A stretch of 64,000 nucleotides of DNA from an uncultured Azospirillaceae bacterium (GCA_964352815.1 CAYGTO010000005.1:7904-71903), one strand, 5' to 3'; numbered from the stretch's first letter, positions 7,807-8,476 are shown. Numbers and translations: made by a program. Notes: generated from the sequence alone by a model not told the origin.

Positions 7807-7890
7807 GTCATTCTCGACCGAGCCTAGCGAGTGTCGGGAATCTAATCGAGATAGATCCCCGAGACGAACAGCAGTTCGCTCGAGGATGAC
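7807..7890 (+). repeat. GTCAT...ATGAC nested-hairpin element (84 nt), upstream flank of secG
   Basis: gtcattctcgaccg...cgggaatc-taatcgagata-gatccccg...ctcgaggatgac. The termini and centre are inverted repeats. Same subfamily as 8396-8476. Confidence 0.85.
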
Positions 7891-7908
7891 GGCAACTAAG
7901 GTAAGAAC

Positions 7909-8301
7909 ATGGAACTACAAACAATTTTACTCGCGCTGCATGTGGTTGTCACCTTGTTGATGATCGGATTTATTCTGTTGCAGAAAAGCAGCACTGATGG
8001 TTTTGGGCTTGGGGGCGGAAGTGGTGCAGGGCTGATGTCTGGGCGCCAGACGGCGAATTTTATGACGCGCACTACGGGTATATTGGCGGCCATCTTTATG
8101 GCGAATAGCTTGTTGCTCTCTATTCTAGCGGCCAGTGACCGTGGGACCTCGATTCTGGATGAAGCGCCGACTGCAGTGATCGAAGGGCAAGAAGAGCTGG
8201 GTGTTCCGCTGGTGGGTGATGGCGAGACAGCGACGCAAGACGTTGCTCCTGTGAAAATAAAGGAAATGCCGAGTGAGCCTATAGTGCCGCTCGCGGAATA
8301 A
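7909..8301 (+). CDS. secG: preprotein translocase subunit SecG
   Basis: 130 aa. LLALHVVVTLLMIGFILLQKSSTDGFGLGGGSG is typical of SecG. Conserved tpiA-secG-pyrG order. Confidence 0.9.
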   Translation: MELQTILLALHVVVTLLMIGFILLQKSSTDGFGLGGGSGAGLMSGRQTANFMTRTTGILAAIFMANSLLLSILAASDRGTSILDEAPTAVIEGQEELGVPLVGDGETATQDVAPVKIKEMPSEPIVPLAE

Positions 8302-8350
8302 TTCGAAACTACTCCTTGCGCTCCCCTAAAAGCCGAGTTATACCTTATAT

Positions 8351-8368
8351 CCCGTAGCAACCTACGGG
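8351..8368 (+). terminator. possible weak intrinsic terminator after secG
   Basis: 7-bp stem cccgtag/ctacggg with loop caac, followed by gattt (short T run only). Confidence 0.25.
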
Positions 8369-8395
8369 GATTTCATGAGAGATTTGCAAATATTC

Positions 8396-8476
8396 GTCAT
8401 TCTCGACCGCACTGCTGTGCGTGTTGGGAATCTTATGTTAGATCCCCGAGATCGGCTAGGCCGACTCGAGGATGAC
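8396..8476 (+). repeat. GTCAT...ATGAC nested-hairpin element (81 nt), downstream flank of secG
   Basis: gtcattctcgaccg...tgggaatc-ttatgtta-gatccccg...ctcgaggatgac. Its terminal ATGAC supplies the ORF-track ATG of pyrG at 8472. Confidence 0.85.

Follow-up and report, generated by a model that had tools for sequence, protein, structure and literature searches.

How can two copies of one repeat carry loops that look inverted while their stems keep the same polarity? The question is raised by the tpiA-secG-pyrG locus of an uncultured Azospirillaceae bacterium (GCA_964352815.1 CAYGTO010000005.1:7904-71903), in which secG is bracketed by two related elements, here called E1 (left) and E2 (right). 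The whole stretch of 64,000 nucleotides (nt) that was analysed is referred to as the window. An earlier note on this DNA had placed the two elements at 7807-7890 and 8396-8476, and they were indeed located on either side of secG, at 7806-7891 and 8395-8477. The note read the right copy as an inverted left copy in which four polarity-marking positions had stayed in place, and it offered two explanations: strand-specific selection at the level of RNA or of the replication strand, or an exchange of loops as modules by recombination.

The secG elements are probably gene-less doublets of the Ssn-related motif (SRM) type, with apical inserts that turn over and are copied between the two halves of a doublet. 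The paradox of inverted loops on uninverted stems would thereby be resolved as anatomy, the unit being the half-hairpin, as expected for repeats that are read as single-stranded DNA by Ssn. Overall, the observation was partly confirmed and its interpretation partly supported: the modular-insert option fits in a weakened form, and the strand-selection option does not fit.

Anatomy of the paired half-hairpins

Each element would pair two NTS/SRM-type hairpins tail to tail, one on either strand. Read along the strand to which it belongs, every half has the form 5'-CGTCAT-stem-insert-stem-ATC-3', with CGTCAT-TCTCGAC-insert-GTCGGGA-ATC for the left half (+ strand) and CGTCAT-CCTCGAG-insert-CTCGGGG-ATC for the right half (- strand). 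Halves were named after the pair at stem position 3, alpha for T-A and beta for C-G.

E1 (86 nt) fills the gap between tpiA and secG and is laid out as CGTC, arm 1 (ATTCTCGA), insert, arm 2 (TCGGGAAT), C and a spacer, followed by G, arm 3 (ATCCCCGA), insert, arm 4 (TCGAGGAT) and GACG. Its alpha half-hairpin (7806-7842, + strand) has T-A at position 3, C-G at the stem top and a T.G wobble at position 5, and carries the insert Q' (ccgagcctagcgagtg) at 7818-7833. After the spacer taatcgagata (7843-7853) comes the beta half-hairpin (7854-7891, - strand; CGTCATCCTCGAG-cgaactgctgttcgt-CTCGGGGATC), with C-G at position 3, G-C at the stem top and the insert P (cgNactgctgtNcgt) at 7863-7879. E2 (83 nt) lies in the secG-pyrG gap, just upstream of pyrG. 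The insert of its alpha half-hairpin (8395-8432, + strand) is P* (ccgcactgctgtgcgtg) at 8407-8423, the homologue of the E1 beta insert, and that of its beta half-hairpin (8441-8477, - strand) is Q'' at 8450-8465, an almost perfect mini-palindrome with CTAG in the middle (gtcggcctagccgatc on the - strand).

The termini and centre, described earlier as identical and in the same orientation in both copies, aligned directly over TTCGTCATTCTCGACCG (17/17), CTCGAGGATGACGG (14/14), TAGATCCCCGAGA (13/13) and GTGTYGGGAATCTWAT (14/16). Folding z-scores against shuffled sequence were -6.2 (+ strand) and -4.7 (- strand) for E1, and -5.6 and -7.3 for E2. The minimum-energy fold of both elements was a cloverleaf or a rod, with arms 1 and 4 paired to each other and likewise arms 2 and 3, an arrangement that sets the two inserts face to face.

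The four polarity positions proved real and same-sided in both copies, but they had been undercounted. The stem-top pair is also side-specific in E1 and E2 (GAC...GTC/GTT on the left, GAG...CTC on the right), which brings the marks to eight positions. The four positions first described are the two position-3 base pairs, each formed within a half. They tell the two halves apart and do not amount to marks retained through an inversion. Among 19 doublet pairings (about 17 distinct), the position-3 pair was Watson-Crick in 38/38 cases within halves, whereas across halves it was Watson-Crick in 2/38, G.T in 18 and mismatched in 18. Four of these pairings came from the window, and the remaining ones from Janthinobacterium, Psychromonas, a delta-proteobacterium, bacteria of the candidate phyla radiation (CPR) and metagenomes. 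They were retrieved with a scaffold pattern in which all polarity positions were left free, yielding 7 genome-contig and 15 metagenome-contig loci, none from the window's organism.

Differences between related halves were largely compensated. The insert of the E1 alpha half recurs in its counterpart at 59107, from which the E1 stem differs by three compensated pairs (CGA/TCG vs GTG/CAC). E1 beta and E2 alpha differ at 7/41 nt, and six of these make up three compensated pairs. In every half the stem is 8-9 bp long and contains, on the sense strand of that half, a T.G wobble at position 5. Whether folded as DNA or as RNA, the sense strand of each half was more stable than its antisense (-19.1 sense vs -11.3 kcal/mol antisense for the E2 alpha half with RNA parameters). 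The half-hairpin on its own strand is the unit of structure and selection. Since this sense/antisense asymmetry lies on opposite strands in the two halves, it is not what selection on a single operon transcript would produce.

In all doublets, the 3' ends of the two half types also differ in short methylation-type motifs, the alpha 3' end GGGAATC containing GANTC (the CcrM motif) and the beta 3' end GGGGATC containing GATC (Dam/MboI-type), which may be coincidence.

Inserts common to E1 and E2

For the loop comparison, inserts were defined as everything lying between the 8-nt arms. Right insert 1 matched the reverse complement of left insert 2 with 13/17 identities and a score of 18, against 6 in direct orientation; 0/5000 shuffles reached this score, and the match included one compensated change of the mini-stem (A-T to C-G). 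Right insert 2, which had been described as the reverse complement of left insert 1, scored 7, a value reached by 372/5000 shuffles. Each insert was then ranked against 44 distinct half-hairpins from the window and other organisms. The P relation was isolated in this ranking (18, the runner-up reaching 3-6). Left insert 1 was nearest to the alpha insert of 59107-59142 (GAGCcTAGCGAG vs GAGCaTAGCGAG, score 20), and inserts from unrelated metagenomes scored 12 and 10 with right insert 2, above its score with left insert 1.

Only P is thus specifically common to E1 and E2, the second loop match being unspecific; mini-palindromes centred on CTAG are generic in the secG-element subfamily. The earlier note had itself proposed that a proper alignment might bring the loop similarities down to the level of random copies: the first match stands above that level, the second does not. 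P keeps the same orientation relative to the reading direction of each half, that is, of the beta half in E1 and of the alpha half in E2.

The closest relative of the secG subfamily in any collection searched was L023 (JGI Ga0255131_1028629), where five CTCGA-type half-hairpins lie within 270 nt (1-270). A CTAG centre was present in 4/5 of its inserts, two of the inserts being perfect palindromes (ctttgctagcaaag and ggttcctaggaacc).

An independent origin of P-type inserts, any short GC-rich mini-hairpin being able to serve and the two copies being unrelated combinations, is the least probable of the explanations weighed here. It would suit the fact that the inserts are short hairpins, and that about 3 nt decide the orientation (a 4-nt apical loop and a bulged T). 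The 13/17 identity, with a score that shuffling never reached, the isolated rank of P among the 44 halves and the position of the bulged T on the same side in both inserts speak against it.

A reciprocal module swap, or double inversion, would go further than the transfer of P. Recombination between the four near-identical arms, first the outer and then the inner ones, would make both inserts change place and orientation while the marks stay. P is inverted and relocated as this model would have it, the arms have an identical CTCGA/TCGGG core, GCCTAGC is common to the other two inserts in the predicted orientation, and on paper, inverting twice through crossovers at the cores of the arms reproduced all four position-3 marks. 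Under this model, however, the stem-top pair should move together with its insert, giving G...C on the left and C...G on the right, and the opposite was observed; double inversion was rejected as the main explanation because of this misprediction. The second insert match is moreover not significant and is beaten by unrelated copies, and recombination would have had 8-12 nt of homology to act on, a very short stretch. With these points taken together, a reciprocal swap was judged unlikely. As only one insert is demonstrably common to E1 and E2, no reciprocal swap or inversion is required, and the right copy need not be an inverted left copy with retained marks.

What stands of the proposal that loops are exchanged as modules is the modularity itself. 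An orthologous locus compared among CPR relatives (alignment A1) had kept its scaffold and one insert; the other insert differed at about 13/29 positions or gained extra pieces of 20 and 30 nt. In the Berkelbacteria metagenome-assembled genome (MAG) L007, the insert gtcggaagc...gcgctccgaca was found in the beta stem of one doublet and in the alpha stem of another 1.1 kb away, a relocation of the same kind as that of P at secG. At another locus (L001), the inserts of both halves were identical and the alpha and beta marks still differed. The inserts are clearly modular units with a fast turnover.

Template switching across palindrome folds is a known process of quasipalindrome correction (Ripley; Lovett laboratory). 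At secG, switching across the cloverleaf or rod fold described above would be the most likely cause of the shared insert: it would copy an insert into the other half, in the orientation correct for that half, and leave the arm marks untouched. In the preferred history, P would either have been copied in this way or go back to an ancestor of the form alpha[P]-beta[P], after which the other insert would have been replaced or would have diverged.

Polarity, transcription and replication in the window

About 12 doublets of the superfamily lie in the 64 kb, E1 and E2 being the only two of the CTCGA subfamily. According to the strand-selection option, the right copy is an inverted left copy whose marks were reset as the transcript or the replication strand requires the T/A/C/G order. 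Both copies do lie in one operon with the same polarity, and their + strand RNA folds were slightly more stable (-44.2 vs -42.0 and -43.7 vs -41.3 kcal/mol). Yet in the same +/+ gene context, alpha-beta doublets (7807-7890, 8396-8476, 59107-59190 and 60825-60979) occurred along with beta-alpha doublets (58557-58659 and 59563-59716), and the GC skew was positive throughout the window, which places all doublets on one replichore. With four doublets of one polarity and two of the other, no tie to gene orientation was found among the superfamily doublets of the window, where one of the two options in the earlier note would have had the marks follow it. Rough gene maps of the loci in other organisms likewise showed both polarity arrangements.

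The nadA gene (59809-60813, Pfam) served, within the window, as a control that shows the effect of an actual inversion. It is bracketed by a true inverted pair of long doublets of about 155 nt, 87-96% complementary, the left one (59563-59716) being beta-alpha and the right one (60825-60979) alpha-beta. Each is made of alpha, beta and a 63-nt spacer with two extra hairpins, and the alpha/beta order, and with it the marks, flips with the element. Strand selection is further opposed by the nature of the marks as Watson-Crick pairs within halves, by the conserved T.G wobble on opposite strands in the two halves, and by the eight concerted changes that resetting would take. Rfam gave zero matches for E1 and E2, even at E <= 10 within the elements; no terminator-like site was found within 7000-8700, and no T tract follows either element. 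Strand-specific selection, which we consider very improbable, is not supported at the level of the superfamily, the CTCGA subfamily being represented by n=2 copies only.

The sister doublet at 59107-59190 (alpha-beta) has CTGTG stems and an alpha insert (gcgagcatagcgagag) that matches Q' of E1 at 13/16 positions, with the three stem pairs compensated. The doublet at 58557-58659 has canonical NTS-like stems (CCCGC), and near-canonical NTS-like copies are present in the window, for example at 58636-58659 (GTCATTCCCGCGAAAGCGGGAATC). Another alpha-beta doublet, at 55386-55471, is of the GTCATTCTGAGTGAA...TCAGGATGAC type, a subfamily that flanks a GIY-YIG gene in Planktothrix. The region 55337-59200 forms a dense SRM-type cluster with several subfamilies (55386, 55616, 57363, 57766, 58557 and 59107). 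In the same region, direct repeats of 64-101 nt (55428-55603 and 57169-57351) flank an open reading frame (ORF) for an RTX-like repeat protein (55991-57052).

Some doublets coincide with reading frames. An alpha-alpha doublet (57766-57862) lies in the 5' part of ORF 57479-58555, where it is translated as ...SLRGSASDRGNLPQDDATPHEIATHPSDARNDDAS...; either the true start is downstream of the doublet, or the repeat was inserted in frame. In the Berkelbacteria MAG L007, an alpha-beta doublet (6476-6546) stands in frame in the valS ORF (4157-6880), translated as ...VIPGKDPESRSPMSERFASDSRMT....

At the secG locus itself, the genes are tpiA (7117-7800, + strand; Pfam PF00121, E = 4e-77), the bracketed secG (7909-8301, + strand; PF03840) and pyrG (8472 or 8487 to 10142, + strand; PF06418 and PF00117). 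The first in-frame ATG of pyrG (8472) lies inside the 3' arm of E2 (gGATGAC), and an alternative GTG (8487) follows a G run. E2 may affect the initiation of pyrG translation. In a relative, PyrG begins just 3 residues ahead of the FIFITGG motif. For the operon, nothing unusual is implied except two stable transcript structures, one of them abutting the pyrG start.

In relatives, the corresponding sites were empty, with a tpiA-secG gap of 7 nt (L027) and a secG-pyrG gap of 6 nt (L025) and no repeat in either. The nearest SecG relatives were only 58% identical, and the ppiD / tpiA-secG-pyrG order was kept at their loci. The secG elements appear to be insertions into gaps that are 6-7 nt long in relatives, and both copies would have been inserted in the same orientation. 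Target-site duplications were absent at E1 (flanks acgttt and gcaact) and at E2 (flanks aatatt and ggggct). A blastn search of E1 against the plasmid collection gave no useful match, and a protein search with element-derived peptides, aimed at mis-called ORFs over sister copies, gave none.

Such insertions could also be classical miniature inverted-repeat transposable elements (MITEs) with the terminal inverted repeats of a DDE insertion sequence, or repetitive extragenic palindromic (REP) sequences in their hairpin-doublet form (REPINs) moved by a REP-associated tyrosine transposase (RAYT), in either case unrelated to Ssn. The terminal inverted repeats of 11-12 nt, the length of 81-86 nt and the intergenic gaps that are empty in relatives would agree with this, and the doublet form resembles REPINs. 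Besides the missing target-site duplication at either copy, what makes this origin quite improbable is the match of the CGTCAT and ATC flanks, together with dRS3-like ATTCCC/GGGAAT stems elsewhere in the window, to NTS/SRM, and the presence of identical doublets beside GIY-YIG genes in six taxa (Neisseria, Azospirillum, Shinella, Rhizobium, Spirosoma and Planktothrix). The ends carry no GTAG-type motif, and no transposase with these ends was seen, although no search aimed at RAYT was made.

Ssn-linked repeats and other known systems

The NTS of Neisseria (CGTCATTCCCGCGMAVGCGGGAATCYRG) encompasses dRS3 and belongs to the wider class of SRM, which are oriented hairpins bound by the GIY-YIG nuclease SsnA as single-stranded DNA only (Chenal et al. 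2025, PMC11893778). In that system, the nucleotides directly 5' of the palindrome (CGTC) govern cleavage, the 3' C is most important for binding, and the NTS-ssnA-NTS arrangement was likened to an insertion sequence (PMC11893778). All four halves of E1 and E2 begin with CGTCAT, so that CGTC lies directly 5' of the palindrome, and all four have a C directly 3' of it (GGGAATC, GGGGATC). Hairpin doublets of the SRM/NTS type with extended inserts appear, from these features, to be a variant of a widespread Ssn-linked repeat family.

Genes for ssnA-like proteins were sought by tblastn in the plasmid collection (33 records, one of them a single locus in an N. gonorrhoeae chromosome filed as plasmid), and the GIY-YIG proteins so obtained were aligned and used to scan IMG/VR, which added 51 further loci. 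The genes from the plasmid collection encode single-domain GIY-YIG proteins (Pfam PF01541) about 94 aa in length. Convergent halves or full doublets flanked the PF01541 genes at 14 plasmid-database and 51 IMG/VR loci. The flanks were NTS copies and alpha-alpha doublets in Neisseria, and a beta-beta doublet on each side in Azospirillum lipoferum (L031, AZO_p3), where the gene is inserted between sufB and sufC. The order was beta, gene, beta in Shinella, Neorhizobium and Rhizobium, and alpha, gene, beta in Aeromonas caviae. A beta-beta doublet stood at the GIY-YIG gene in Spirosoma, and alpha-beta doublets of the same subfamily as window element 55386-55471 in Planktothrix.

Over all loci, the nearest flanking halves were beta/beta in 8 cases, alpha/alpha in 5, alpha/beta in 5 plus one imperfect, and beta/alpha in 1, both halves of the latter being >220 nt from the gene. 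Where the flanks were dimorphic, alpha lay upstream of the ssnA-like gene and beta downstream at 6/7 loci, in about three independent groups. A universal rule giving every ssnA one alpha end and one beta end was rejected, as many lineages have alpha-alpha or beta-beta flanks. GIY-YIG motif patterns gave no hit in the collected repeat loci, and a weak tblastn match to GIY-YIG in L007 was also rejected, being a TPR-like ORF.

Two side observations concern these records. In the unannotated Shinella sp. PSBB067 (L042), the flanks look like the same sufB-sufC position as in Azospirillum, a different genus, as judged from sequence. The PLSDB entries NZ_CP119140.1 and NZ_CP119142.1, labelled as N. 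gonorrhoeae plasmids, are actually 2.17-Mb chromosomes.

Several points weigh against the reading of the secG elements as SRM-type doublets with mobile inserts. The E1 and E2 halves fail the published degenerate SRM pattern, HGTCWYN(0-2)YYVSBRHN(0-5)WNVSBRGN(0-2)RNCYNB (PMC11893778), the stem having A/C where B/R is required, and their insert measures 16-17 nt where the pattern allows 0-5 nt. No ssnA or other GIY-YIG gene was found within the 64 kb window by motif search and tblastn, and a cognate nuclease of the secG elements is putative. The GIY-YIG proteins from other organisms, identified by PF01541, are candidate members of cd10448. The GCCTAGC that the other two inserts have in common could reflect a true reciprocal swap. 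Lastly, the template-switch step is one that we infer, and two subfamily copies do not allow the history of the inserts to be reconstructed.

The sole strict match to the published SRM pattern in the window lies elsewhere, at 21463-21491 on the - strand (TGTCACCCCGCACTTGTTGCGGGGTCTGG). In its GTCAC...GGGGTC form, this variant resembles the motifs on either side of the GIY-YIG gene in Sphingobium (L036).

The alpha-beta doublets would be gene-less derivatives of an alpha, ssnA, beta unit, since removal of the gene from such a unit would leave an alpha-beta doublet. A wider and more doubtful proposal, which we put forward tentatively, is that alpha-beta doublets are in general MITE-like, gene-less derivatives of an insertion sequence-like alpha-ssnA-beta unit. 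Its ends would be functionally distinct, their dimorphism would have been kept from Proteobacteria to Cyanobacteria and CPR, and the inserts would be a hypervariable payload copied between the ends. In that case the repeats would be propagated by Ssn nucleases or by a partner enzyme, and each doublet would show, by its polarity, which way a now lost ssnA gene had faced. The alpha-beta end rule, with alpha upstream and beta downstream of ssnA-like genes whose flanks are dimorphic, is the most interesting by-product of the analysis. The results bear on leads left open by the 2025 Ssn paper, namely whether spread occurs as gene-less copies of an alpha-ssnA-beta unit and why inserts are so unstable. 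For annotation, a rule follows for these very common elements, usually mis-called as small ORFs: alpha half, beta half and insert should be recorded.

Among known systems, quasipalindrome template-switch mutagenesis resembles what is invoked for P and for L001, as one arm or insert of an imperfect palindrome is copied in concert into its partner. Unlike the element families, it is a mutational process, which for the secG elements we infer. Rickettsia palindromic elements (RPE) are likewise palindromic repeats able to sit in frame inside genes, as the L007 doublet does in valS, but their sequences are unrelated and they have no known nuclease link. Correia elements and bacterial MITEs are similarly intergenic, about 80-150 bp long and co-transcribed with their neighbours, with terminal inverted repeats and end variants that define subtypes. 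The secG elements differ from them in having no TA or other target duplication, ends that are themselves hairpins, and no parent DDE insertion sequence.

REP sequences, with bacterial interspersed mosaic elements (BIMEs) and REPINs, and their IS200/IS605-like RAYT come closer. They too are short hairpin repeats in inverted pairs, with strand-specific recognition of single-stranded DNA by an enzyme whose single-copy gene is flanked by its own repeats. Here, however, the 5' GTAG-type motif is missing, the enzyme is a GIY-YIG nuclease rather than a Y1 transposase, and mobility brought about by Ssn is putative. Compared with NTS/SRM (Neisseria dRS3, SsnA), the secG elements have a CTCGA stem instead of CCCGCG and a structured insert of 16-17 nt instead of a 3-5 nt loop; their halves are fixed in tight alpha-beta doublets, with no ssnA gene within the window. 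Like NTS/SRM, they are oriented hairpins with 5' CGTCAT, 3' ATC and AT(T/C)C...G(A/G)AT stems; within the window their superfamily has many intergenic copies that often bracket genes, and in other organisms convergent copies flank small GIY-YIG genes.

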